DNA of 64,000 bases from Clostridia bacterium. Its GTDB lineage: Bacteria; Bacillota; Clostridia; Oscillospirales; Acutalibacteraceae. How positions within the stretch are numbered: position 1 is the first letter of the stretch; each line of letters opens with the position of its first letter. Position numbers and translations under genes: made by a program. The notes under the pieces were generated by a model. That model searched no databases and was not told the origin of the DNA. It saw nothing but the letters and a program-made list of their open reading frames with translations. The stretch spans positions 9,911 through 73,910 of the forward strand of contig JAFVEY010000027.1 in the NCBI GenBank assembly GCA_017475765.1, given 5' to 3'. Positions 14,524-53,789 of the stretch are shown one piece after another.

Positions 14524-15660
14524 TTAAGTATACAGCTTTACATCGGTGGGTTTGAAGAAAACAGCGATCACCGTATCGCCCTTTTTGACTCCGGAGCGCC
14601 TATGACCTTCAAGAACCGCTTGGTTTCCGGCTTTATCCGCACAGGTGTAGTAATAATAGGTTTTGCTTTTTCTGCCGGCATGATATGCTGCGGTATTGAT
14701 ATCCTTCAACAGGTATCTCTGACAATGCAGATTTGGATTTTTCAGCTCGGAAAGTGTTTTCATAATGTCTACAAAAAATCCCAAAGAAATGATGAAGCAA
14801 AGTATACTTATCAGTACAAAGACAACGAACAGTTTATCTGCCATCATTGAACTGACGCTGTCAATATTGCTGTGCTGCGGTTCCAATAGGATGATCCCGT
14901 GAGATACACAGTACAGAAATACACAAAACAGCACCAGTATCGGGAATGGGAGTATTGTCGGAATAAGATGTTTTCTTTCTTTTGCTGTCAGATAAGCCCG
15001 CTCATTATCGGTCATGATATGTGAGCTTTGAGGAATGGAGGGCGTTTTTATATCTGCCGGAAAAAGCACTTCTCCGCTGATTCTGTTTCCTGTATGCTCA
15101 TAAATATCATCAACGATCTCGCCGAACTGTTCTCTTGTATATCCCGGCTCCGGCGCCTCAACGGTTTTCACCGCAATGCAGGTGCGCCTGTTGGCAGCTT
15201 CTTCGCCGAGAAGATCAACAAGATATACTTTGTCTCCCGGCTGACATTCCGTAAATACCTCTATGGTGCATTTGACCTTGATATCCTTTCTGCCGACAGA
15301 TACAATGATGTCAAACAGGTCGTCACCGTTATGTGAGGGACGGCTGCTCAGATCGCCTGACTTTTTTGCAATGACAGCGTCCGTATAATGGGCATGATTG
15401 CTTTCAAGACAGGATTTGATCTCCTTTTCCTTTTTGGAACAGATCACCGTCAGGATGACAAGCACAGCGGTAATGGTGATAAAAACCAGCAAAAAACCGA
15501 CTGCCAATCCATCCATTTCCCTATACTGGAGTAATTTGAGCATTAACAACAAGCCGGTCAGCGCAAACCAAAAGGCATAAGCACCAACCATCGGTACAAA
15601 ACCTGAATTCATTTTTCTTTTCAGACTGTAATACAGTTCGTTGTCTATTCTTTTCCACAT
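14524..15660 (-). CDS. hypothetical membrane protein (two TM-pair + soluble-domain modules)
   Basis: 378-aa ORF with four hydrophobic helices and no recognisable catalytic motif. Confidence 0.5.
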   Translation of the reverse strand: MWKRIDNELYYSLKRKMNSGFVPMVGAYAFWFALTGLLLMLKLLQYREMDGLAVGFLLVFITITAVLVILTVICSKKEKEIKSCLESNHAHYTDAVIAKKSGDLSSRPSHNGDDLFDIIVSVGRKDIKVKCTIEVFTECQPGDKVYLVDLLGEEAANRRTCIAVKTVEAPEPGYTREQFGEIVDDIYEHTGNRISGEVLFPADIKTPSIPQSSHIMTDNERAYLTAKERKHLIPTILPFPILVLFCVFLYCVSHGIILLEPQHSNIDSVSSMMADKLFVVFVLISILCFIISLGFFVDIMKTLSELKNPNLHCQRYLLKDINTAAYHAGRKSKTYYYYTCADKAGNQAVLEGHRRSGVKKGDTVIAVFFKPTDVKLYT

Positions 15661-15700
15661 AATAACACCTCATTGTCTGATATATCATTTTGTTTCGCCG

Positions 15701-16456
15701 TTATTTTCCGTATCTTCTGAAATCCTCTTCCGAGCCGCAGAATACGTTCAGGTCAATAAAGTGCTCATCGCCGCTGTAACCTTCAAGCTGACCCTTTTCG
15801 CTGTACTGCCAGAATGTCCACTTCCTTCCGTCAGGAAGTGACGGCTCACGGAAAATATCACGAATCCATATATCATAATCCATATATCCGCCGGAAAGAT
15901 ATATTTGATATGCTGCACCGGTGGAGTAAATGACGGGTTTTGTGCCGTAATGCTTTTCCAGCTGGCTGATAAGTATGTCGAGCTGAGCATTTACGTCCTC
16001 ACGGTTCGGCGGATGATTCTGTTTGTCCGCATAAAATTCGATATCTATAACAGGCGGGAGCATATCAGGGACAGCTTCAACGGTTGAGATGAAATTCTCA
16101 GCCTGTGTTTTGCCGCTGCTGTCAAAGCTAAAAAAATGGTAAGCACCTGTTCGTATACCAGTTTTCTGTGCCTGCTGCCAGTTATATTCAAACCTGCTGT
16201 CGAAGGAGCTGCTGCCCTCGGTTGCTTTGATGTAGGCAAAATCAATATCTTTGGAAAGCACCTGCCAGTCGATATCACCCTGATAGGACGAAACATCAAC
16301 ACCTTTGACCGGATATTTTTTCTCCGGGTGATTCAGCGTAATCAATCCGTTTATGTATAATAAAATTACGGTACCGATCATAACTGCCAGAGCGGCTGAA
16401 ATGCCAACTGTAATTTTAACTGCAAAAGTGATTCTTTGCCTGACTGTTTTCTTCAT
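15701..16456 (-). CDS. glycoside hydrolase family 25 lysozyme (N-terminal membrane anchor)
   Basis: GVDVSSYQGDIDW...FAYIKATEG...GAYHF, typical of GH25 muramidases. Confidence 0.75.
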   Translation of the reverse strand: MKKTVRQRITFAVKITVGISAALAVMIGTVILLYINGLITLNHPEKKYPVKGVDVSSYQGDIDWQVLSKDIDFAYIKATEGSSSFDSRFEYNWQQAQKTGIRTGAYHFFSFDSSGKTQAENFISTVEAVPDMLPPVIDIEFYADKQNHPPNREDVNAQLDILISQLEKHYGTKPVIYSTGAAYQIYLSGGYMDYDIWIRDIFREPSLPDGRKWTFWQYSEKGQLEGYSGDEHFIDLNVFCGSEEDFRRYGK

Positions 16457-19048: not shown

Positions 19049-20173
19049 ATGAATGGTGCAGACATAAAATATCGTGAAAAAGTTATAGTGCGTACAAGTA
19101 TGATCGGGATCGCCGCCAATATCGTTCTTGTTCTGTTCAAGGCGGCTGTCGGCTTTGTGACAAATTCAATAGCCGTCATGCTGGATGCGGTCAATAATCT
19201 CAGCGATGCACTTTCAAGCATTATCACGATAGCCGGCACAAAGCTGGCTAACAAAGAACCGGACAAAAAACATCCTTACGGACACGGCAGGATTGAATAT
19301 CTCAGTCAGCTTGTTGTTGCCGCCATCGTGCTTTATGCCGGAATCACCGCAGCAGTTGAATCTGTAAAGAAAATTATCTTCCCGGAAGCGGCAGATTACA
19401 GTATTGCTTCGCTCATTATCATAGGGGCAGCGGTGGCGGTTAAAATCGTACTCGGAATTTATGTCGGAAAAAAGGGCAGAGAGGTAAAATCGGGCTCTTT
19501 GGAGGCTTCCGGCTCGGACGCATTTTTTGATGCGGTTCTTTCCGCTTCCGTACTCTTTTCGGCGGTGATCTATCTCCTGACAGGAGTGAGCCTTGAAGCG
19601 TGGGTGGGCGCAGTTATCGCTGTGTTTATCATCAAATCGGGATTTGAAATGATCAGGGACGCTGTCGATGAAATGCTTGGTGTCAGAGTCAGCGGAGAGC
19701 TTGCATCGGAGATAAAACACACCATAACGGAGGAACCGGAGGTTCAGGGTGTGTATGATCTTATCATGCACAATTACGGTCCCGACAGATTTCTCGGCTC
19801 TGCCCATATCGAGGTGTCTGACACTTTGACGGCATCTGAAATCGACACCCTGACCCGCAGAATACAGGATAATGTTTATAAAAATCATGCGGTTATTATG
19901 ACGGCAGTCGGCATTTATTCCGTCAATACAAGCGATGATGAAGCCGAAGCAATCCGCACAAGGGTTCGTGAAACAGTAATGAGCCGGAACGGTGTTATTC
20001 AGTTTCACGGATTTTATATCGACATAAAGAGCCGGCAGATGAGCTTTGATGTCATCATTGATTTTGACTGTGACAGAAAAAGAATTTACGAGGAGATCAC
20101 CGAAGAGATCAAAAAAGCATATCCCGATTATCATATCCGTATCACGCTTGACAGCGATATGAGCGATTCGTGA
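19049..20173 (+). CDS. cation diffusion facilitator (CDF) family transporter
   Basis: Six TM helices, HPYGHGRIE motif and a C-terminal cytoplasmic domain. Confidence 0.8.
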   Translation: MNGADIKYREKVIVRTSMIGIAANIVLVLFKAAVGFVTNSIAVMLDAVNNLSDALSSIITIAGTKLANKEPDKKHPYGHGRIEYLSQLVVAAIVLYAGITAAVESVKKIIFPEAADYSIASLIIIGAAVAVKIVLGIYVGKKGREVKSGSLEASGSDAFFDAVLSASVLFSAVIYLLTGVSLEAWVGAVIAVFIIKSGFEMIRDAVDEMLGVRVSGELASEIKHTITEEPEVQGVYDLIMHNYGPDRFLGSAHIEVSDTLTASEIDTLTRRIQDNVYKNHAVIMTAVGIYSVNTSDDEAEAIRTRVRETVMSRNGVIQFHGFYIDIKSRQMSFDVIIDFDCDRKRIYEEITEEIKKAYPDYHIRITLDSDMSDS

Positions 20174-20187
20174 AATCAGATATATCA

Positions 20188-20227
20188 ATTTGCTGCTGTG
20201 CCGAAAGGTATGGCAGCAAATTTTTTC
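20188..20227 (+). terminator. intrinsic terminator after the CDF gene
   Basis: atttgctgc pairs with gcagcaaat, followed by T6. Confidence 0.7.
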
Positions 20228-20300
20228 GCCCTTGTTGACTGAAATAAATGAAATATAGTATAATAATATCAATATATGAAAGATACAGGGGGATTTGCCG

Positions 20301-22778
20301 ATGAAAACAGTTTTTGTATCAAGCACATTCAAGGATATGCAGTATGAACGTGATGCCATAAAGCGTATTACCGCACCAATTCTGAATGAAGAAGCACGAA
20401 AGCATAATGACGAGTTTGATTTCTGTGACCTTCGGTGGGGTATCAATACAAGTGACCTCGACACAGAAGAGGGCTCAAAGAAGGTACTTGATGTTTGTCT
20501 TGACGAAATAGACCGCTGCAAACCGCCAATGGTGGTGCTTCTCGGCTATCGCTACGGCTGGATTCCGGATGGGGATCTGATTAAGACAGCAGCCGAAAGG
20601 AAGAAAATGCAGCTGGAAGATCTGGAGCGAAGCGTGACAGCGCTTGAGATCGAATATGGTGCGCTGAGAGATGAGGAACACTTTGCCAATACACTTTTCT
20701 ATTTCAGAGAGATAGAGGGAGAGGTTCCGTCCGACTATCAGTCCGAGGATGACGAACACGCCCGAAAAATCAAGGCACTCAAAGAAAGAATCCTGTCAAA
20801 AACGGGCGGCAGGATCAAAACCTACACCCTCCGCCGGAATGAAAGCGGTTTTGACGGAATTGAAGATTTTGCCGCATTGCTTGCCGAGGATATAAAGGAG
20901 AAGCTGCTGCCGGAGTGGGAAAAAACCGATAAGCTGACACCGTTTGAAAGAGAGCGCAGAACACACGATACCTATATCCGTGAAAAGAACGAGATGTTCT
21001 GTGCAAGAAAGGCAGAAGCCGAAAAGCTGAAAGCCGATATTCTTGCCAATCCGGTGACGATCATCAAAGGCGAAGTCGGCAGCGGAAAGAGTACAATTTT
21101 CAGCCGCCTTGTCACAGAACTTGAAAAGACAGACTGGACGGTTCTGCCGTTTGTATCGGGACTGACCGTGAGCAGCAATGATGCAGGTGATATTATTGAG
21201 AATACGGTTTATTTTATTGAAAATGAACTGAAAACAGAGAAGCATTATATTGACGAAACCGATCCGCAGACGGGTGAAAAATTAAGACACACACCTGACG
21301 AATGGAGAGAAAAGCTCGCAGAGATGTGTTCATTATATACCCGTGACGGCGGAAAAAAACTGCTCATCATGCTTGATGCAGCCGATCAGCTTGCGCAGAG
21401 TGAGCAGAGGGACAATCTGCATTTTATTCCCTTGTCCGTTTCCGGGAATATACACTTTGTCATGACAAGCACCCTTGATTTCAAAACGGGCAGCAGAGAA
21501 TTTTATACCCTTCAGCCGATAGACGAGGCAGGCAAAAGAGAGGTGATCGAAGGAATTTTAAGGCGCAGCGGACGAGAGCTTTCAAAGCCTGTGATCAATC
21601 AGATGATCAGCCTGAGATCATCGGACAATCCGCTGTATCTGTCGCTTTTGGTTCAGCGGCTGGTGATGATGAACTATGACGATTTCGCAGCAATCAGAAG
21701 CATGGGCGACGGCATGACGGCGATAGAGCAGCACCAGATGAAACTCATCCATTCCTGCCCCGATGATCTTGACGAGATGAGTGCGGCTCTTCTGAATGAA
21801 GCAGGCAGAAGGATCAATCACGTTCTTGTGTCAAAAGCGGCGCAGTACCTCGCTGTGTCAAGATACGGACTCAGAAAATCCGACCTTTCTGCCCTGCTGG
21901 GGGAAAACTGGACAGATGTTGACTTTTCCCATTTTCTGAGTTATATGAACGACTGTTTCATGCTCAGGGATGACGGCCGTTTTGATTTTACCCACAAAAG
22001 CATAAGGGCAGGATTTTTAAAACAATGTGCAGACATCCATCAGGCCAACAAAGAAATTCAGGAACATCTGAAAGCGCTGGAAGAAAACGACCCTGTCAGG
22101 ATCGGTGAACTGATATATCATACGATCAGGGCAGATGATAAAGCATATTTTGTATATCATATAAAAAAGTATGAATACTTTGACAATACGAAATATATCC
22201 ATCAGGCTGCATTGGATGTCTATGAAAAATGTATGTCTGACGGTGGAAAATGGATCGTTGATCTGCTTGAAGAGACAGAAAAGGATGAATTGAATTCTGA
22301 ATACAGATATATTTCTTCTTTTATTAATTTTGATTTAAAAAAGATATTTACCGGTTCTCAGAAGGAATTGGAGATACAGCTTTATATACAACAACAGAAT
22401 CTGAGGTTTGCAGAAATATTGAATGAAACTGTTGGTGACAATGACACGCAAAGAAGTCTGTCTGTTACGCTCAATATAACAGGTTATGTATACCAATCAT
22501 CGGGCGGCAGAGAAAATCTTGAAAAGGCGTTGGAACTGTATCAAAAATGTCTTGAACTTTTCGAGCAGTTGAAAACCATTAATGCTTATGATGATCTGGC
22601 AGTAAGTCTGTATAAGATTGCGGCAAACGAACTGACACCAAAGGAGGAGAAGAAAAAGCTGATTGAAAGAGCGCTTGAAATTGCCGATATGCTGTATCGG
22701 GAAACCAAAATGGACAGATATCAGATGTTCATTAAAGTATTTACCGATTTGCAGATTCAATCGACCTCCGATTCATAA
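20301..22778 (+). CDS. STAND-type P-loop NTPase with N-terminal DUF4062 (TIR/Rossmann-like) domain and C-terminal TPR-like repeats
   Basis: N-terminus VFVSSTFKDMQYERDA...VVLLGYRYGWIP...LEIEYG matches the DUF4062 pattern. Walker A GEVGSGKST, Walker B LLIMLDAAD, and a helical repeat C-terminus. Confidence 0.65.
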   Translation: MKTVFVSSTFKDMQYERDAIKRITAPILNEEARKHNDEFDFCDLRWGINTSDLDTEEGSKKVLDVCLDEIDRCKPPMVVLLGYRYGWIPDGDLIKTAAERKKMQLEDLERSVTALEIEYGALRDEEHFANTLFYFREIEGEVPSDYQSEDDEHARKIKALKERILSKTGGRIKTYTLRRNESGFDGIEDFAALLAEDIKEKLLPEWEKTDKLTPFERERRTHDTYIREKNEMFCARKAEAEKLKADILANPVTIIKGEVGSGKSTIFSRLVTELEKTDWTVLPFVSGLTVSSNDAGDIIENTVYFIENELKTEKHYIDETDPQTGEKLRHTPDEWREKLAEMCSLYTRDGGKKLLIMLDAADQLAQSEQRDNLHFIPLSVSGNIHFVMTSTLDFKTGSREFYTLQPIDEAGKREVIEGILRRSGRELSKPVINQMISLRSSDNPLYLSLLVQRLVMMNYDDFAAIRSMGDGMTAIEQHQMKLIHSCPDDLDEMSAALLNEAGRRINHVLVSKAAQYLAVSRYGLRKSDLSALLGENWTDVDFSHFLSYMNDCFMLRDDGRFDFTHKSIRAGFLKQCADIHQANKEIQEHLKALEENDPVRIGELIYHTIRADDKAYFVYHIKKYEYFDNTKYIHQAALDVYEKCMSDGGKWIVDLLEETEKDELNSEYRYISSFINFDLKKIFTGSQKELEIQLYIQQQNLRFAEILNETVGDNDTQRSLSVTLNITGYVYQSSGGRENLEKALELYQKCLELFEQLKTINAYDDLAVSLYKIAANELTPKEEKKKLIERALEIADMLYRETKMDRYQMFIKVFTDLQIQSTSDS

Positions 22779-22794: not shown

Positions 22795-22837
22795 AGCCAT
22801 GCTGCGAAAATCCTGCCGCAGCATGGCTGTTTGTATT
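22795..22837 (+). terminator. intrinsic terminator
   Basis: agccatgctgcg pairs with cgcagcatggct (12 bp), followed by gtttgtatt. Confidence 0.6.
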
Positions 22838-46017: not shown

Positions 46018-49000
46018 ATGGCGACTATTGAGAACAGTAAATTTCTTGAATCCATTATTGAAAAAGCAAAAACGTATACCGAAGAGGGCAATGTAACGAT
46101 TGATACGATTTTTCTTGCAATGATGGAATTTGTTGAAAATGTATCAGGACCGGAACTGACATCTGAGCAGATAGAGCTGAAAAGGCTTATTTCCGAAAAT
46201 GTCGATCTTTCAAGCGCCGCAAAGCTCCTGCATGAAGAAATAAAGAAAAAGAAAATTTCTTTTATTGATAATATCAATTATCAGAAACTGATCAAGGAAG
46301 CATCGGAACAGTCGGAAAAAAGCAGCCTGACAGAGCTGAGAGCAGATATTCTTGCTCAGTGTATCGTAAGATCTCCTTCCAACTCCATTAAAACAATTCT
46401 GAACCGTAAATCCGATAAACCGGCATTGGATGTGCCGCTGCAGAAAGCCGCTGATATATCCGAAACTCACGATAAGACAACCGCTGATGAAAAAACAGAG
46501 GCTCCCGAACCGGAAAAAGAAGAATCTGCAGACCCGCTTGATAAGCTCCGTCAGGTCGAGGCACTTGTAAAGAAAACAAAGCAGATAAGCGATATTCTGT
46601 CGAAAAAGCTGTATGGTCAGAATAATGCGATCGCCACCTTTGTTTCGGGCTATTTCCAGTCACTTATGCTGAAACTGACAGGAGAAACAAGAAATGCTCC
46701 CGGAGCATCATTTCTTTTTGCAGGCCCTCCCGGTGTCGGCAAGACCTTCCTTGCGGAATCGGTTGCGGAAGTTCTGGAGCTTCCGTATAAGCGCTTCGAT
46801 ATGAGCGAATACTCCGATCATGAGGCTAATATGATGTTCTGCGGCTATGATAACGTCTATAAAAATGCCGCTCCCGGTCATGTAACATCGTTTGTGGAAG
46901 AAAATCCGAAATGTATCCTTCTTTTTGATGAAATCGAAAAATGTCATCTCAATGTCATACACCTTTTCCTTCAGCTTCTGGATGCAGGCAGACTTAAGGA
47001 TAACTATACAAGAAAAGAAGTATCGTTCAAGGATGCGATCATTATTCTGACGACAAATGCAGGAAGAGAAATCTATGAAAATTCCGATTCCGGAGATTTC
47101 TCCGATATTCCGAGAAAGGTGATACTCAAGACGCTTCAGAGCGACATCAACCCCGTGACGGGAGCACCGTTCTTTCCGGGAGCAATATGCTCACGCTTTG
47201 CAACAGGCAATGTTGTCATGTTCAATCGTATGGATGTTACGGGACTCAGCTCGATCGTGAAAAAGGAAATGTCCAGAAATGCGGATAATATTGCAAAGAG
47301 CCTTGATGTCAAACTGGAAATTGACGAAAATATCTATACGGCTGTTTTGTTTGCCGAGGGCGGCGGAGTTGATGCAAGAACCGCAAGGAGCAGAGCGCAG
47401 ACCTTTATAGATAAGGAATTGTTTGAGCTTTTCAGACTGATGACATCGGAAGCATCTGTCAGCAAGATTGAGGATGTCAAGAAAATATCATTCTCGATGG
47501 AGCTGCCGAAGGAAAACAAGGTGATCTACGAAACCTTTAATATGTGTGAAAAGCCGGAAGCGCTTGTATTTGCTTCGTCAGATGTGGAGAGTAAATTTGA
47601 AAAAAGCAAGGGGTTCTTTGATCCTGTATTCGTTGATAATATTGAAAAAGCAAAGGAGCTTCTGACAAAGCGTGATATTAAATTCGTACTGATTGATTTC
47701 AGCTTCGGTGGAAACAACAATATTTATAATTATCTGAATATTGAGGATGTTTACTCTGCCGGAAGAGATTTTTTGCGTGAGATCAGAGAAAACTATAAAT
47801 CAGTTCCTGCCTATATTATCCAGACCGAAACCTATGAGTTCAGCCCAGAGGAAAGAGTTTCGCTCCTGCACCAAGGCGCAAGAGATATCATTGAGCTTGA
47901 ACCGAATGATACCATGACCGAACAGCTTGCCGAAATATGCAGAGCTTTGCATCGCCAGCAGAGTATGTATGAAATGACCAGCAGGGGAAAGGTGCTTACC
48001 TTTGAAACCGCTCAGACTGTTTCAAAAACAGATGAGGGACTGGAAGCCGAAATAAAACTGTTCGATTTCAGAACGGTAACTGCGGTTGATGCAGAGGATA
48101 ATGGACAGATCGTCAACAACCTTTCAAGACCCAATACGAAATTTGATGATGTGATCGGTGCGGATGATGTCAAGGAGGAACTCAGATATTTTGCGGAGTA
48201 TATGAAAAATCCGAGAAAATATGCCGGCACCGGACTCAGAGCGCCGAGAGGTATCCTTCTTTACGGTCCTCCCGGAACAGGTAAAACGCTTATGGCAAAG
48301 GCGCTGGCAGGGGAATCGGATACGACATTTATCAGCGCAGAAGGAAATCAGTTCCTTAAAAAATATGTGGGAGAGGGTCCTGAAGCGGTACACAGACTTT
48401 TCAGAACCGCAAGAAAATATGCGCCGTCCATTCTTTTTATTGATGAAATTGATGCTATCGGCAAATCAAGAGAGGGAGAGGGAGGACATATCAACGGCGA
48501 TATTCTTACTGCCTTTCTTGCAGAGATGGATGGTTTCAGCTCCGACCCGTCCAAGCCTGTGTTTGTGCTTGCCGCTACCAATTATGATGTTGACCCGGAA
48601 AGTCCGAGGTGCATAGACCCTGCACTTCTCAGACGCTTTGACAGAAAAATGTATGTCGATCTTCCGAAAAAGGAGGAAAGAAAGAAATATCTTGATATGA
48701 AACTGGCGGCAAATAAGGCGTTCAGTGTTAGTGATGCTGCTGCCGGCAGTCTTGCCAACCGTTCAATCGGAATGAGCCTTGCAGAGCTGGAATCGGTTCT
48801 GGAGCTTGCTCTTCGCAGCGCTGTCCGTACAGGCAGTATGTCTGTCACCGATAAGATCCTTGACGATGCTTTTGAAACCTTCAACAGCGGAGAAAGGAAG
48901 GAATGGAGCGAGGAGATCATGCTGCGTACGGCAAGGCATGAATCAGGTCATACGCTTATGTGCCGTCTTACGGGTGAAAAGCCGTCTTATGTGACCATCG

Positions 49001-49464
49001 TTTCCAGAGGAAACTTCGGCGGCTATATGCAGCATGCCGACAATGAAGAAAAGAGCGGCTATACAAAGAAGGATATGTTCGGCAAGATACGCACAGCCCT
49101 CGGAGGACGTGCAGCTGAAATCGTTTATTACGGAAATGAGGACGGCATCTCGACAGGCGCATCATCCGATCTTTCTTCCGCAACAAGAATGGCAACAAGT
49201 ATGCTTTGCCGGTTCGGTATGATAGAAGAATTCGGAATGGGTGTGCTTTCGGATCAGGAGCTTTTATATTCTCCTGCTGCCTCTGAGGTGAGAAGTGCCG
49301 TCAATAAGATACTGAATGAGCAGCTTGAAATGGCAGTCATGCTGATCTCCGCACACAGAGACTGCATTGACGCTCTTTCCTCACAGCTGCTTGCGAATAA
49401 TCATCTGAATACCGAGGAGATAGATGAAATTATAGGAAGATTTATTGATCTGAGCAAGATTTAA
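46018..49464 (+). CDS. chimeric soluble AAA+ metalloprotease: Clp-N-like + ClpA/B-D2-type AAA + receiver-like + FtsH-type AAA + M41 peptidase
   Basis: LYGQNNAIA..GPPGVGKTFLAESVAEVL..LLFDEIEKCH..LLDAGRL..TTNAG (ClpAB D2). A CheY-like alternating pattern follows. Then ILLYGPPGTGKTLMAKALA..ILFIDEIDA..ATNYDVDP..ALLRRFD (FtsH AAA) and HESGH with conserved downstream acidic residues (M41). No TM helices. Confidence 0.7.
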   Translation: MATIENSKFLESIIEKAKTYTEEGNVTIDTIFLAMMEFVENVSGPELTSEQIELKRLISENVDLSSAAKLLHEEIKKKKISFIDNINYQKLIKEASEQSEKSSLTELRADILAQCIVRSPSNSIKTILNRKSDKPALDVPLQKAADISETHDKTTADEKTEAPEPEKEESADPLDKLRQVEALVKKTKQISDILSKKLYGQNNAIATFVSGYFQSLMLKLTGETRNAPGASFLFAGPPGVGKTFLAESVAEVLELPYKRFDMSEYSDHEANMMFCGYDNVYKNAAPGHVTSFVEENPKCILLFDEIEKCHLNVIHLFLQLLDAGRLKDNYTRKEVSFKDAIIILTTNAGREIYENSDSGDFSDIPRKVILKTLQSDINPVTGAPFFPGAICSRFATGNVVMFNRMDVTGLSSIVKKEMSRNADNIAKSLDVKLEIDENIYTAVLFAEGGGVDARTARSRAQTFIDKELFELFRLMTSEASVSKIEDVKKISFSMELPKENKVIYETFNMCEKPEALVFASSDVESKFEKSKGFFDPVFVDNIEKAKELLTKRDIKFVLIDFSFGGNNNIYNYLNIEDVYSAGRDFLREIRENYKSVPAYIIQTETYEFSPEERVSLLHQGARDIIELEPNDTMTEQLAEICRALHRQQSMYEMTSRGKVLTFETAQTVSKTDEGLEAEIKLFDFRTVTAVDAEDNGQIVNNLSRPNTKFDDVIGADDVKEELRYFAEYMKNPRKYAGTGLRAPRGILLYGPPGTGKTLMAKALAGESDTTFISAEGNQFLKKYVGEGPEAVHRLFRTARKYAPSILFIDEIDAIGKSREGEGGHINGDILTAFLAEMDGFSSDPSKPVFVLAATNYDVDPESPRCIDPALLRRFDRKMYVDLPKKEERKKYLDMKLAANKAFSVSDAAAGSLANRSIGMSLAELESVLELALRSAVRTGSMSVTDKILDDAFETFNSGERKEWSEEIMLRTARHESGHTLMCRLTGEKPSYVTIVSRGNFGGYMQHADNEEKSGYTKKDMFGKIRTALGGRAAEIVYYGNEDGISTGASSDLSSATRMATSMLCRFGMIEEFGMGVLSDQELLYSPAASEVRSAVNKILNEQLEMAVMLISAHRDCIDALSSQLLANNHLNTEEIDEIIGRFIDLSKI

Positions 49465-49480
49465 AGGAAGGGATTTTTTT

Positions 49481-51763
49481 ATGACACAGCTTATGATACT
49501 ATTCTGCCTTTCTCCGATATGTCTGTTGATCGGTGTAGCTTGGCTTGTAAAGCTGAAAATCAGTAAGAAATACAGCTCTACAAGCCGTAAGCTGTGTATA
49601 TTCTCTCTGTCGCTGGTTCTGACCATTTTTATCATGCACCTGCTGGTTTCCGTATATCAGGTTCATTTTGTGCTGGGGGCTGACGGTGAACAAAACGGAA
49701 TGGAGCTGATATCGGCAAGTATCATCCACACGCTGCAAAGCTTCAGTATGGATGCTTCCTATGGAGATTATATTGCTGATGCCAAATCAATGCTTGCCGC
49801 TTATTTCGGCAGCGGTTCACCTTGGGTGACGGCTTATACGGTTTTCATAGCTTTGACCAATGTGGCGGCACCTGTGTCCGGAGGAGCAATTTTGTTTGAT
49901 ATCCTGACGACATTTATACCGGAGCTGAGGCTTTTTGTCGTGCTGCCGTTCAGAAAAAAATATTATTTTTCAGAACTGAATGAGCGTTCGCTTGCACTTG
50001 CGGAAAGTATCTATTCCCGCAGCAGAAAAAGTTTTCTGAAGCCTGTACTGATTTTTACGGACGCTTATGTTGACGAAGACGATGAATTAAAATCAGAGCT
50101 GCTGATTGCGGCAAAGGCGATCGGAGCAATATGTGTAAAATCAGATCTCAGGTACACGCTGAAACAGGAAAAGAATACTTATGTTTTTCTGATTGACGAA
50201 AATGAAACAGATAATCTGAAAACTCTTATCACACTTACAGAAAAAAAACATTATCAGACGCTCAAAAATGCCTTTATTTATATTTTTTGCGAAAAGGGAT
50301 ATACAAGCAGCGTTGAAAGAGAAGTACACAGCAAGCTCGAAAGGTTTTTCTCTTCAAAGTGGAAAAATTGTGAAAAGAATATGCCTATCATCATTTCCGT
50401 CAAAAGCTATCAGAATATGATCTGTAATTTGTTTAATGATGTGCCGCTGTTTGAACCGTTTCTGACGAAGAATGCGATACCCTATCATCAGGAAAAAAAG
50501 CTGGTGCTTACGATCATCGGAAGCGGAAAGATTGGAACAGAGGCATTTCTGACGGCAACATGGTGTGCGCAGATGCTCGACACAGAGCTTGTCATCAATG
50601 TTATCTCCAAAGAAACCGAGGAGGAATTCTGCAGTAGGGTAGACTTTGTCAATCCGGATATTCTTGAAAGTACCAAAGAACGATCCGAACTTTTAAGAAT
50701 TTACAAGCACAGGGAGGATGAGCAGGCTTTTGCTGCTCCTTATTTCAGATTCCAGTATTTTCGGTCGGATCTTGTTTCCAAAAATACAGATGAGCTTCTT
50801 GATGAAAAGCTGAAGGTGGGCGGCACTTTATTTGATACGGACTATTTTATTGTGACACTAGGTGCAGATGATATCAATATTTCCTTTGCAGACAAGCTGA
50901 GAACGGCAATTGAAAGGAAAGCTCTGGGACACCTGACAGATAGTGAGAGTACATATAAAAAGAAGATCATCGCCTATGCCGTTTATGACAAGGAAATATC
51001 TGATTCGCTGAATCATGCGGATTCACTCAGAAGCAGCTCCGCCGGCGGCAATGTGCTTGAACGCTGCAAGCCTTGTATGTATGCCTTTGGCAATATCAAG
51101 GAGCTGTACGGGGCAGAAAATGTATTTATGAGTATCTTCGAGGATATGTCCGAGCAACTGGCAGCAGCCTATCAGGAAAGAAAGGAAGCTCTGGTTGATA
51201 CCGACAAGGAAAAATTCAGAGAGAAAACGGATAAAAGGTACAATGACGAATACAATTACAGTTCCAATAATGCAAGAGCGGTTCATCAGCCGTATAAGAT
51301 GTATTCGGCAGGTATTCTGAAGGAATCTGTTTTTGACGATCATTGCTGTTTCAGGCATAAATCGGATTATGAAGCATTGATTTACCGTTTTTATCAGTTC
51401 CTTACAGACAAAGAGGAGTTTTCTCAGGAGAAAAAGGATATCATTAGAAGGCTGACATGGCTCGAACACAGAAGATGGAATGCGTTCATCAGGGTGCAGG
51501 GACTCAGGCACGCAACCGATGATGAGCATGAGACATTCTTTAAGCTCACAGGAAAGCATAAAGACCTGTCTGCAAAACTGCATAACTGTCTTGTTGAAAG
51601 CAGCGATAAGGAATTTGAAGATGTCACCACTCTTTATCATGATGAATCGGAGCTTGACGAAAACAAGCATGATCTTCTCGACTATGAATCATTCAAGGCT
51701 CACAGTTATTACAAATCTTATGATATGCCTGTTGCCGAGATAAAAATTACTATGAAAAAATGA
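49481..51763 (+). CDS. membrane protein with N-terminal TM helices, RCK/TrkA-N-like Rossmann motif and C-terminal RyR-like domain
   Basis: TM helices in the first ~70 aa. IIGSGKIGTEAF is a GxGxxG motif. LTWLEHRRWNAFIRVQG...KLHNCLV resembles the RyR domain pattern LAExHExW...GW...KLHPxLV. It starts 17 nt after the protease gene, so the two are probably co-transcribed. Confidence 0.45.
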   Translation: MTQLMILFCLSPICLLIGVAWLVKLKISKKYSSTSRKLCIFSLSLVLTIFIMHLLVSVYQVHFVLGADGEQNGMELISASIIHTLQSFSMDASYGDYIADAKSMLAAYFGSGSPWVTAYTVFIALTNVAAPVSGGAILFDILTTFIPELRLFVVLPFRKKYYFSELNERSLALAESIYSRSRKSFLKPVLIFTDAYVDEDDELKSELLIAAKAIGAICVKSDLRYTLKQEKNTYVFLIDENETDNLKTLITLTEKKHYQTLKNAFIYIFCEKGYTSSVEREVHSKLERFFSSKWKNCEKNMPIIISVKSYQNMICNLFNDVPLFEPFLTKNAIPYHQEKKLVLTIIGSGKIGTEAFLTATWCAQMLDTELVINVISKETEEEFCSRVDFVNPDILESTKERSELLRIYKHREDEQAFAAPYFRFQYFRSDLVSKNTDELLDEKLKVGGTLFDTDYFIVTLGADDINISFADKLRTAIERKALGHLTDSESTYKKKIIAYAVYDKEISDSLNHADSLRSSSAGGNVLERCKPCMYAFGNIKELYGAENVFMSIFEDMSEQLAAAYQERKEALVDTDKEKFREKTDKRYNDEYNYSSNNARAVHQPYKMYSAGILKESVFDDHCCFRHKSDYEALIYRFYQFLTDKEEFSQEKKDIIRRLTWLEHRRWNAFIRVQGLRHATDDEHETFFKLTGKHKDLSAKLHNCLVESSDKEFEDVTTLYHDESELDENKHDLLDYESFKAHSYYKSYDMPVAEIKITMKK

Positions 51764-51902
51764 TTCGTTTGATATCGGACTGTCAGACAGTAAAATATCT
51801 CAGCTAAGACTTTTGTATGTTTTTAACTCACCCCCCACCTTTTGTGCAATGAAATTTACCAAAACATACTGAAAAATATAGTAAGTGAAAGTAGGTGATA
51901 AT

Positions 51903-53789
51903 ATGTCATTATTTTTTGATCGCAAAATTGGTAAATCTAATCAACCAAAACAGTCAAAATGCTTTATCAGTCATTGTAGTGATGATAATATAATTATGAA
52001 CAGTCTGTCAGAATTTATTGATGTTACATTTGGCTACAATATAACAAGAGTCAATAACAGATTTTTCTGTACATATCATAATAGTGTGGCAGCAGGCATT
52101 GCATTAAATAAGAAGCTTAACCAAGAGCTTAATGAATGTGATTATATGATTGCTGTTATTACTGATAGTTATGTAAGAAGTACTGTATCAATTTATGAAC
52201 TTTGCTCATTTTACTTTGCTGGGAAGCCCGTGATACCGATTATTTATAATGGAGTTGTGGGAGAAAAATTTATAAGGGATATTTTTAATGAAAATATTGT
52301 TTATATTAAAGCTGATAAAAGTACTTCATTATCAGAACTTTCGTTACAATTTTTGAAATCTCTGAGCGAACAGGGATTAAGACCGAATGTATTAGAATCA
52401 CAGGCTGTCGAATATGCAGAAAGATTTTTTGAGGTGTCTGCGCAAAAAAAGCCAAGCAGATCTTTTATAGGTTGCGATGAAGAAAAATATGATAAACTTA
52501 TAAGAAAATGTGCAGAAATGGGTATTTGTGAATTCAGATCTGACAATAATGGAAATATTGAGCAACTTGCCGATAGCAAAGAGCTTTTCATACTTTCTAC
52601 TACCGGTGATTCACTGATAAAAAAACTATCTGAGTTTGTTATTCCTAAAATTATCAGAAACGGCGGAACTGTTATTGTTCTTATACCTAATAAGGAATCA
52701 GCATTTTGCAGAGATATAGCTGAGATAGAAAATCCAGATGATTTTCAGTACAATCAAAAACGTCTTGATAATGAATTTGATAATGTTATCATTAACTTAA
52801 GAAGATGCGTAAAGAAGGCATCTGAAGAGATTTCTGATCAGAAATTGGGAAAGATATATATAGGCTGTGCATTTAATCTTTTAAGACAGACTATTACACT
52901 TGGAATAACTGAGGAATATTTTTTGGGGTGGATGTCTGTTACAATTCCCCCTAAGCGTACTGTAACTGGAACACCTACAATTGATTTTAAGAGTGAAATA
53001 AACTGTGAATCTGGTCTTGGTTATATGCTGTATCATCATATAAATGCAGTATGCTCTATGGCAAAGACGAGAAATTGTTTTTTTGAAATAACATATGAAA
53101 GAAATTTTGACAGAGGATTTTATCTTGAACCTTCGACGGCAAAGGACTACTGGCAGGAAAAATCAGATTTGGCTGTTCAATTTATGAGGGAAGCTAAAAT
53201 TTATGACGATATTCTGATTGAAGTTGCGGCGCAGCATCCTCTGCATAATGGTAACAAACCGGGACCGGAATTTGCTGCACGGCTAGATTTTGCTTTTGAT
53301 TTATATAAAAAGTATAAGCAAATCGGAAAAAATGTAAAAATGTATGTTCCTGGAAGTATTCATAAGTATAAAGGCAAAACGGATAATATATCGCTAAGTA
53401 AATCAGGATGTGATTATCTTTTATCTAAAGGAGCAGAACCGGACGATCTTTATGGTGAAGAAATGAATAATAAATATAAAGGAGAAAGCGGAGTATACAA
53501 TTCTGCAGATGAGTGTTTTGTTGCAAAAAGTATTTTTTTTGATGGAGAGTTCAATTCACTTTTTTGCGTTTGCTCACCTAATCAGATGATGCGTAAAAAG
53601 TTGTTTTATTTAGAAATGGGAATTCTTCCGAAGTTTTATACTGTTCCGTGTGATATAATGTTTCATTCGGATATTTACGAAATATTTGAAGCTTTGCCAA
53701 ATGTTATATATCAAGATCATTCTCAGCAGGAAGAAGGTTCTGAAGAAGCAGTTCGTACAAGAAAAGAAAGAAAACCAGGATATATTTGA
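51903..53789 (+). CDS. TIR-like domain protein with long C-terminal extension (possible DUF218/YdcF-like region); very AT-rich gene
   Basis: N-terminus KCFISHCSDDN...ECDYMIAVITDSYVRSTVSIYELCSF follows the TIR pattern (FISY..D...L...G...ivlS..y..S.WC..EL). GC is about 30% against about 45-50% in the flanks. Confidence 0.5.
   Translation: MSLFFDRKIGKSNQPKQSKCFISHCSDDNIIMNSLSEFIDVTFGYNITRVNNRFFCTYHNSVAAGIALNKKLNQELNECDYMIAVITDSYVRSTVSIYELCSFYFAGKPVIPIIYNGVVGEKFIRDIFNENIVYIKADKSTSLSELSLQFLKSLSEQGLRPNVLESQAVEYAERFFEVSAQKKPSRSFIGCDEEKYDKLIRKCAEMGICEFRSDNNGNIEQLADSKELFILSTTGDSLIKKLSEFVIPKIIRNGGTVIVLIPNKESAFCRDIAEIENPDDFQYNQKRLDNEFDNVIINLRRCVKKASEEISDQKLGKIYIGCAFNLLRQTITLGITEEYFLGWMSVTIPPKRTVTGTPTIDFKSEINCESGLGYMLYHHINAVCSMAKTRNCFFEITYERNFDRGFYLEPSTAKDYWQEKSDLAVQFMREAKIYDDILIEVAAQHPLHNGNKPGPEFAARLDFAFDLYKKYKQIGKNVKMYVPGSIHKYKGKTDNISLSKSGCDYLLSKGAEPDDLYGEEMNNKYKGESGVYNSADECFVAKSIFFDGEFNSLFCVCSPNQMMRKKLFYLEMGILPKFYTVPCDIMFHSDIYEIFEALPNVIYQDHSQQEEGSEEAVRTRKERKPGYI

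Follow-up and report, generated by a model that had tools for sequence, protein, structure and literature searches.

A gene at positions 20301..22778 of the forward strand of the 64,000-nucleotide stretch of DNA analyzed (the window) is predicted to encode a single-protein, NLR-like immune sensor that acts against phage by depleting NAD+, a reading to which we assign a probability of roughly 0.7. The complete coding sequence (825 aa plus stop) specifies an NIR (DUF4062) domain, a NACHT-type STAND ATPase and a helical repeat region with the corresponding folds and intact catalytic and ATPase residues, and the gene, which is arranged as a stand-alone cassette, is gained, lost and remodeled between strains. 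In the proposed mechanism, the STAND module (Walker A K263, Walker B D359, WHD H565) would keep the resting protein as an inactive monomer, the C-terminal helical, TPR-like region would recognize a signal that accompanies entry of a phage or another mobile element, and nucleotide exchange followed by oligomerization would gather and activate the N-terminal NIR domains. NADase chemistry, its dependence on a glutamate, activation by oligomerization and the antiphage outcome are drawn from the literature on NIR proteins, and this clade, including the short-repeat allele described below, may by analogy behave in the same way. The initial annotation had proposed a candidate antiphage sensor, and that proposal is now supported, by analogy, as a well-precedented assignment because three preprints of 2026 report that DUF4062, renamed NIR, hydrolyzes NAD+ and that the NIR-STAND-TPR protein PsAvs2 defends against phage (bioRxiv 10.64898/2026.09.04.749371).

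The 825-aa protein is identical to NCBI MBR2175915.1 ('DUF4062 domain-containing protein [Clostridia bacterium]') and was found unchanged in three metagenome assemblies and one NCBI MAG. Its open reading frame, which ends at 22778, may start at TTG 20295 or ATG 20301, the latter being credible because a ribosome-binding site, AGGGGG (20287..20292), lies 8 nt upstream. A sigma-70-like promoter with 11/12 matches (TTGACT, 18 nt, TATAAT) is present at 20235..20264. The flanking terminators described earlier were both recovered as hairpins that fold far better than shuffled sequence. The first of these (20187..20222, 16-bp stem followed by a U-run, -23.7 kcal/mol, z -5.5) serves as intrinsic terminator for the CDF gene upstream and delimits the cassette on its left, while the second, a perfect 12-bp hairpin past the stop codon (22795..22828, z -4.3) with a weak U-tract, is probably the terminator of the DUF4062 gene. 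With its own promoter-like site, ribosome-binding site and flanking hairpins, the gene is a stand-alone expression cassette, as had been suggested, and no att sites or target-site duplications were detected around it in a search for direct and inverted flanking repeats; tRNA genes were likewise absent from the window. Pfam matches placed the gene, in agreement with the initial annotation, between a CDF transporter (Cation_efflux plus ZT_dimer) on the left and RsmA/KsgA (RrnaAD) on the right, within a gene order, GPx-MarR-CDF upstream and rsmA-murD downstream, of housekeeping genes. A 435-aa antisense open reading frame (19214-20521), already suspected of being spurious, was rejected since it matched no Pfam family and runs across two genes that are themselves supported.

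The AlphaFold2 model of the protein (pLDDT 88) consists of a TIR-like N-domain, an NBD-HD1-WHD module and a helical solenoid of approximately 240 aa, and a helical linker (aa 186-249, 20856..21047) connects the effector to the NOD. The tripartite architecture claimed for the gene was confirmed by Pfam, structure prediction, fold searches and the invariance of catalytic and ATPase residues, and all of the motifs quoted for it (VFVSSTFKDMQYERDA, CLDEIDRCKPPMVVLLGYRYGWIP, SVTALEIEYG, GEVGSGKST and LLIMLDAAD) were found in the translation. The P-loop NBD (aa 250-400, 21048..21500) was delineated by Pfam, model and fold search. It includes Walker A (GEVGSGKST, aa 257-265, 21069..21095), of which G260, G262 and K263 do not vary among 63 homologs, and Walker B (LLIMLDAAD, aa 354-362, 21360..21386), of which D359 is invariant and D362 is Asp in 62/63; at the level of sequence, the D-x-x-D spacing of the latter motif is NACHT-like. 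The HD1 and winged-helix domains follow (aa 401-578, 21501..22034) and contain the DFTHKSIR motif, in which the WHD histidine H565 (codon 21993-21995) is also invariant in 63 homologs. Scores above the cut-off were obtained with NPHP3_N, a NACHT-type STAND family (aa 250-390, 30.8 bits versus 24.8), while the NACHT model itself matched the 825-aa protein with an E-value of only 0.051. Among 39 family members, NPHP3_N was matched by 38 and NACHT (PF05729) by 13, and NB-ARC was absent from the 25 Pfam families matched by most members. Top Foldseek matches to the full-length model were a STAND-TPR protein, Avs3, Avs5 (including the Avs5-type structures 9jap and 9nc9), SAMD9, plant NLRs and MalT. 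These findings indicate that the ATPase is a STAND, as the initial annotation had proposed, and belongs to the NACHT/NPHP3_N clade, with an NBD-HD1-WHD arrangement that resembles those of solved STANDs; by analogy, oligomerization is predicted to depend on ligand and nucleotide.

The region beyond the NBD, described in the initial annotation as about 350 aa of TPR-like repeats, proved to be helical as stated but less extensive in its repeats, since its first part is HD1/WHD (aa ~401-578) and the solenoid (aa 579-816) contains only approximately 1.6 units (aa 691-769) of the canonical 50-aa TPR-like repeat. The solenoid begins in the model with a family-specific helical domain (aa 579-689, 22035..22367), from the start of which both GC3 and identity to homologs fall. 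The repeat itself (150 bp per unit, aa 690-769, 22368..22607) was delimited by family repeat comparison and is followed by a conserved cap (aa 770-825, 22608..22775) that matches the extreme C-terminus of long homologs. Repeat-bearing homologs carry 3-14 units; other short members are P0013 with 3 units, P0007 with 4 and P0039 (975 aa), which occurs on 24 contigs. Units are 53% identical within one protein versus 36% between proteins and approximately 71-74% identical at the DNA level. No tandem array was detected by TRF in the 825-aa gene, which fits an array of less than two units. Truncation at the 3' end was rejected as the source of the short length, given that the final 60 aa correspond to the cap at the C-terminus of long homologs; as read from the sequence, the short sensor is thus the product of repeat contraction with the cap kept in frame.

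Comparison of strains within the species, based on contigs with close CDF and KsgA homologs, revealed four versions of the locus between flanks that are 97-98% identical. These were the intact gene, an allele with at least one more canonical repeat unit (on a contig with 98% identical flanks), an allele (P0001) that diverges after residue 629, and a CapH/CapP-like cassette. The divergent tail of P0001 was considered as a frameshift of the 825-aa gene and this was rejected, no frame of the window encoding the tail. In the sister strain that carries the cassette, collinearity extends up to 20243 and resumes from 22698, such that other cargo replaces the strain-variable segment (20244..22697, no strand assigned) and a 27-codon remnant of the gene is left. 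The promoter straddles this boundary, with the -35 box in DNA common to the sister strain and the -10 box in the variable segment. No second copy of the divergent 27-28 nt past the left breakpoint of the sister strain was detected when the window, the remaining fetched loci and viral contigs were searched.

From the same observations it could be argued that the present allele is decaying or impaired, i.e., that contraction of the array cost most of the recognition surface, that the trigger is no longer sensed and that loss is under way. The array of 1.6 units as opposed to 3-14, the longer allele in a near-identical setting, the divergence of P0001 and the reduction to 27 codons in the sister strain are all in line with this explanation. 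We nevertheless consider it unlikely, since the reading frame is intact, the catalytic and ATPase residues are all conserved, the C-terminal cap remains in frame, promoter, ribosome-binding site and terminator are intact, the identical protein recurs in the assemblies noted above and short forms recur within the family. The short array was also counted against the immune-sensor reading, inasmuch as sensing could be impaired.

The family to which the protein belongs is large, with 1,289 representatives of clusters formed at 50% identity (E <= 1e-30). The gene is not conserved in synteny, a point on which the initial annotation had made its interpretation depend. It was absent beside ksgA in 80 related genomes as well as being replaced in the sister strain. 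A KsgA-based scan of genome and metagenome contigs recovered no genome of the same species, and synteny was already lost at the distance of the best match (81% identity). The distribution is patchy and strain-variable, and the gene belongs to the accessory genes with fast turnover. Among seven homolog loci examined, one was next to a type III CRISPR system, one next to a TIR-LRR protein, one next to genes for an AAA_14/DUF4143 protein and a CHAT protease, and a further one was located on a recombinase/Mob/RepA element. No defense island was present within 10 kb of the gene in the source genome, and a scan with the family alignment detected no relatives on viral contigs. PADLOC v2 models, including AVAST/Avs, gave no match to the 825-aa protein or seven homologs beyond weak ones at the level of the P-loop, and an NCBIfam search similarly gave weak P-loop-level matches and no named defense family. 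Of the proposed Avs/NLR-like immune design, therefore, the NLR-like architecture was upheld but membership in Avs1-5, as defined by PADLOC models, was not; the protein is not filed with Avs1-5, though it would be Avs-like in its working, and the newer families Avs7-24 (PMC12803255) stand outside the Avs1-5 models applied here. The lack of a PADLOC match, the housekeeping neighbors and the lack of a homolog on viral contigs were counted against the immune-sensor reading.

The housekeeping neighborhood and the failure of known defense models to match are also what might be expected if an NIR-STAND sensor served a role unrelated to phage, either by controlling NAD+ or dormancy when an endogenous stress or metabolic signal is received or by acting in conflicts with other bacteria or with plasmids, and eukaryotic proteins with the same modules (TEP1, NPHP3, NWD1) do have non-immune or unknown roles. 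Such a role is nonetheless quite improbable in view of the sporadic, strain-variable occurrence of the gene and its association with mobile elements and defense genes, the family pattern of a variable sensor with a conserved effector, and the antiphage activity of all bacterial NIR proteins tested to date.

The effector of the predicted immune sensor is the NIR/DUF4062 domain (aa 1-185, 20301..20855), modeled as a TIR/NDT-like, five-stranded parallel alpha/beta fold and predicted to be a NADase. Pfam DUF4062 (PF13271) was matched at aa 4-98 (49 bits, cut-off 24.7) and in 39/39 family members, and the solved NADase domain of human TEP1 was matched both by the single sequence (E 3e-17) and by the family profile (E 1e-29). 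The predicted catalytic glutamate, E116 (codon 20646..20648, within the motif S111-x-T-x-L115-E116-x-x-Y119-G120), is invariant in 63/63 homologs and pairs with chain residue 115 of TEP1 structure 11gz_A, which, from the numbering, we infer to be the catalytic E1008. Corresponding catalytic residues of NIR proteins are KpSwz E97, PsAvs2 E108 and TEP1 E1008. Human NWD1, NWD2 and NPHP3, which contain the same domain pair, had no NADase activity in vitro; hence activity cannot be assumed from an intact Glu, and this too was counted against the immune-sensor reading. That the N-domain acts other than by NAD+ depletion, by making a signaling nucleotide or by hydrolyzing another nucleotide or nucleoside in the manner of CMP hydrolases or deoxyribosyltransferases, is likewise quite improbable, as its closest relative by sequence is the TEP1 NIR, a demonstrated NAD+/NADP+ hydrolase that yields solely ADPR(P) and nicotinamide, and NAD+ depletion is seen in every bacterial NIR system tested.

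The class of protein has already been described and the value of the present findings is therefore incremental; the repeat contraction and the four-version locus are new in this analysis. If the protein is active, the NIR NADase effector extends to a large NACHT-type, NLR-like family in anaerobic gut Clostridia that shares effector and NOD type with human TEP1 and NPHP3. The alleles at this locus, which form a series (minimal-repeat, longer-repeat, C-terminally divergent and replaced), provide a natural experiment on the extent of repeat array that such a sensor needs and on the speed of defense-gene turnover at a chromosomal hotspot. A broader and rather doubtful, if conceivable, proposal is that this gut-Clostridia NIR-NACHT-TPR family might be the counterpart among prokaryotes of the animal NPHP3/TTC41/TEP1-type module, and might have been its donor lineage, with a sensor that would evolve as in fungal NLRs and a 1.6-unit allele that would be minimal yet functional. 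Under that proposal, recognition would be tuned within the species as 50-aa units are gained, lost or exchanged and as the whole C-terminal module is swapped, with a recombination junction near codon 600-630, the site of the GC3 break and of the divergence of P0001.

Among known systems, animal TEP1, NPHP3, TTC41 and NWD1/2 contain the same pairing of NIR with an NPHP3_N-type NACHT, and the layout of NPHP3/TTC41 is NIR-NACHT-TPR as in the 825-aa family, 5/39 members of which match the Nephrocystin-3 TPR model (best E 4e-18). The eukaryotic proteins differ in having additional TROVE, WD40 or coiled-coil regions and vault, telomerase, cilia or unknown roles, and NADase activity among the animal proteins has been shown for TEP1 only. 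Fungal NLRs, in which tandem TPR, ANK and WD repeats evolve in concert and vary in number between isolates (TPR motifs from 2 to above 14; Dyrka et al., 2014, PMC4986451), are alike in joining NACHT or NB-ARC to repeats of variable copy number, here from 1.6 to 14 with arrays that differ between related contigs; internal conservation in the present family, approximately 71-74% in DNA, is lower than the >85% of fungal 'HiC' repeats. In the NIR defense systems Swarozyc, Evangelion, Vulcan and Vesta there is no STAND ATPase switch and NIR is joined directly to a short AUX/HTH domain, HEAT repeats or a partner phosphatase, whereas a STAND NOD of approximately 330 aa lies between NIR and repeats of the 825-aa protein, which places it outside Swarozyc, Evangelion and Vulcan. 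EfAvs5 (AVAST type 5) likewise combines STAND control with NAD+ depletion in a single protein but has a SIR2 effector in place of NIR and a different NOD clade and sensor. PsAvs2 of Pseudomonas chlororaphis, an NIR(DUF4062)-STAND-TPR Avs2 (bioRxiv 10.64898/2026.09.04.749371), has the same single-protein layout and an NIR with a catalytic Glu. The present protein differs from it in a STAND and sensor that are not Avs2-like (the NOD being of NACHT/NPHP3_N type, unmatched by PADLOC AVAST/Avs models), in a copy-number-variable 50-aa repeat array as opposed to a dedicated terminase-binding domain, and in its Gram-positive, gut-anaerobic host. By this likeness, NAD+ depletion and growth arrest would be the expected output of the 825-aa protein.

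The gene at 20301-22778 lies in a forward-strand open reading frame (20295/20301-22778) for which ATG 20301 is the likely start, since AGGGGG occurs 8 nt upstream; the 825-aa product is identical to NCBI MBR2175915.1 from a Clostridia MAG. A promoter-like site, TTGACT-18-TATAAT (20235-20264, forward strand), matched at 11 of 12 positions. In agreement with the initial annotation, which had described a terminator-flanked gene between a CDF transporter and ksgA, strong hairpins were noted on both sides, one at 20187-20222 (-23.7 kcal/mol, z -5.5) that is followed by a U-run and is the terminator of the upstream CDF gene, and one 3' of the stop codon at 22795-22828 (12-bp perfect stem, z -4.3) with only a weak U-tract, and the neighbors were identified as the CDF transporter on one side and RsmA/KsgA, then MurD, on the other. 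The 435-aa antisense ORF already dismissed in that annotation was also rejected here as spurious, having no family match and overlapping two supported genes.

All motifs quoted previously were found in the ORF, and the assignment of a DUF4062 N-terminus (now termed NIR) and a STAND NTPase was borne out by Pfam scores above cut-off for DUF4062 (aa 4-98, 49 bits versus 24.7) and NPHP3_N (aa 250-390, 30.8 bits versus 24.8). Models for nSTAND1/3/5 and NACHT scored under their cut-offs for this protein, and TPR models gave only faint matches near aa 738-771. A confident AlphaFold2 model (63-sequence alignment, pLDDT 88, pTM 0.78) showed an alpha/beta domain of five strands (aa 1-185) connected through linker helices to a P-loop NBD (aa 250-400), with HD1 and WHD (aa ~401-578) and a solenoid of ~12 helices (aa 579-816) after it. 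In sequence searches, the N-terminal 200 aa matched the solved 220-aa human TEP1 fragment 11gz_A (E 3e-17; E 1e-29 for the family profile), with E116 aligned to chain residue 115, which we infer to be the TEP1 catalytic E1008, assuming that the chain spans TEP1 residues 894-1113. Residues invariant across 63 homologs included S111, L115, E116, Y119 and G120 of the N-domain as well as G260, G262 and K263 of Walker A, D359 of Walker B and the WHD histidine H565, while F10, R17, R45, W46 and R84 were nearly so.

Clustered at 50% identity, the family defined by NIR plus the STAND module comprised 1,289 representatives (E <= 1e-30). Where homologs are named in their source, they are MAG proteins of Clostridiales, Lachnospiraceae, Coproplasma and Gastranaerophilales. 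Matches were collinear over residues 1 to ~660 in proteins of ~800-2,000 aa, and among 39 members DUF4062 was matched by 39, NPHP3_N by 38, NACHT by 13 and the Nephrocystin-3 TPR model by 5. Certain members (P0172, P0189, P0196, P0197, P0229 and P0238) carry ~320 additional residues N-terminal to NIR, which may be a second effector or regulatory domain; aa 10-94 of P0172 matched the PADLOC model BnzA (E 3.6e-12).

Most homologs are 1,100-1,400 aa long, versus 825 aa here. Loss of the C-terminus was ruled out as the cause, as residues 760-825 align with the cap at the very C-terminus of long homologs. Residues 690-760 correspond to a unit that is repeated every 50 aa in the latter and appears in homolog DNA as 150-bp tandem arrays (6.7 and 8.9 copies, 71-74% identity); no tandem array was found in 20301-22778 at the DNA level. 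A repeat-unit HMM counted 3-14 copies in homologs that carry the unit and ~1.6 in the 825-aa protein, and it is rather unlikely, with the cap retained and the motifs intact, that contraction of the array has crippled sensing. Among the scored proteins of full length (at least 800 aa), 46 lacked the unit, and their C-terminal regions therefore differ. Identity between units was 53% (up to 90%) inside one protein versus 36% across proteins and, on these sequence grounds, the units show concerted evolution.

Four versions of the locus were evident among contigs with flanks 97-98% identical to the window, which were taken to be strains of one species. The intact gene was present in three metagenome assemblies and one NCBI MAG. 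A second contig (L180), which begins inside the gene, has a canonical unit in place of the degenerate first unit and a 4-aa indel, so that its array is at least one unit longer. A third allele, P0001, was 99% identical over residues 1-629 and unrelated beyond, a divergence for which a frameshift was ruled out. The fourth, a sister strain, was collinear to 20243 and again from 22698, with other cargo (L178:132-2765, Logan SRR33718299) in place of 20244-22697; since a 27-codon 3' remnant persists, the STAND gene was present first and was then overwritten. The cargo, listed from left and right contigs that do not join, so that the full cassette may hold more, includes genes for an XRE HTH protein resembling CapH (E 9e-10) and an M78 peptidase resembling CapP (E 1e-10). 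It also encodes a DUF4417 protein that hits phrog_940 (5e-41), for which the PHROG annotation is nuclease, as well as two small ORFs and a 137-aa member of a phage family. The whole could be a defence cassette under CapH/CapP control or else derive from a phage. On an IMG/VR viral contig, a DUF4417 homolog was noted (62% identity). On the left, collinearity breaks off inside the promoter, after the -35 box but ahead of the -10 box, and the TTGACT box (within 20235-20243) is therefore part of the conserved flank; it could drive the alternative cargo too.

Identity to the 19 closest homologs was 0.74 for NIR, 0.65 for the NBD and 0.69 for HD1-WHD versus 0.45 for aa 579-689 and 0.31 for aa 690-825, and GC3 falls from ~0.55 to ~0.33 where identity falls. 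The break is sharp, GC3 in 22100-22640 (codons ~600-780) being ~0.33 versus ~0.55 elsewhere in the gene and ~0.50 in its neighbors. Since identity and GC3 fall together, the C-terminal third appears to have a different history, perhaps through recombination or module swapping, and coincidence of the break with the P0001 divergence point (residue 629/630, nt ~22188) suggests a recombination junction for exchange of sensor modules.

With AspRS, EF-G, EF-Tu, MurD and other such genes, the window belongs to the core chromosome; it has no tRNA, and no defence genes were found within 10 kb of the gene. Elsewhere in the window, an unusual double-AAA FtsH-like protease locus (46018-53789) encodes a 1148-aa protein with Clp/AAA_2-like and FtsH-like AAA modules fused to Peptidase_M41, followed by ORFs of 760 and 634 aa without a Pfam match at 1e-5, and at 14524-16456 (reverse strand) a 378-aa ORF without a Pfam match adjoins a GH25 lysozyme gene between EF-Tu and thymidylate kinase, a pair kept in the sister strain. 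The nearest reference genomes were uncultured Ruminococcaceae/Clostridia MAGs from herbivore guts (KsgA identity <=81%). Universal syntenic conservation, which would have argued against an accessory defence gene, was not seen, a homolog lying beside ksgA at none of 80 loci in related genomes; the genes ahead of ksgA varied (a BspA-LRR protein, or NUDIX and GpsA), and the next-closest species kept GPx-MarR-CDF followed by a two-component system. The homologs examined all had different surroundings: a serine recombinase/Mob/RepA element in one case and, in others, type III CRISPR-Cas, barnase-barstar, metabolic genes, a TIR-LRR protein, or a CHAT protease together with an AAA_14/DUF4143 protein. 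Next to homolog P0033, ~9 paralogous ORFs of 103-112 aa without a Pfam match (L088:5932-8757) are flanked by Sel1-repeat proteins, with Cas10 and Cas6 of a type III system ~8 kb away. Homolog P0039 is followed by a small HTH gene and, at a distance of 1 kb, by the gene for a 710-aa TIR_2-LRR protein without an NTPase domain (L089:14035-16167), possibly a further immune sensor of that island. Turnover at the locus is as expected for a defence gene at a hotspot, and a role other than against phage seems improbable.

The proposal of an antiphage or abortive-infection sensor was upheld, and the protein class is already described, because three 2026 preprints settle NIR effector biochemistry. In these, the conserved NIR glutamate was needed for defence in Swarozyc (portal-activated), PsAvs2, Vulcan, Vesta and Evangelion, TEP1 alone of the human proteins was active in vitro, and ~20% of prokaryotic NIR genes were near known defence genes. 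Different chemistry in the N-domain is the least probable alternative. The gene has the architecture and intact motifs of such a sensor and behaves as an accessory gene; by analogy, depletion of NAD+ with abortive infection is the most likely mechanism (probability roughly 0.7). Thus, an infection cue would be recognized by the C-terminal helical region, leading to STAND nucleotide exchange and oligomerization, which would bring NIR domains together for hydrolysis of NAD+ via E116, and growth arrest would follow. This chemistry and outcome are carried over from homologous systems and would apply to this clade and to the 825-aa allele.

The main points of interest are an NPHP3/TEP1-like module in a large gut-Clostridia family, a sensor with minimal repeats and an allelic series within one species. 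PsAvs2, a NIR-STAND-TPR Avs2, is toxic if co-expressed with phage terminase (bioRxiv 10.64898/2026.09.04.749371). PADLOC v2 models, including AVAST/Avs types, gave no match past the P-loop for the 825-aa protein and seven homologs, and the protein is therefore set apart from Avs1-5. Its NOD is NACHT/NPHP3_N-type, and the NIR-NACHT-TPR layout is common to animal NPHP3 and TTC41, while concerted evolution like that of the 50-aa units of this Clostridia family has been described for fungal NLR repeats (Dyrka et al. 2014, PMC4986451).
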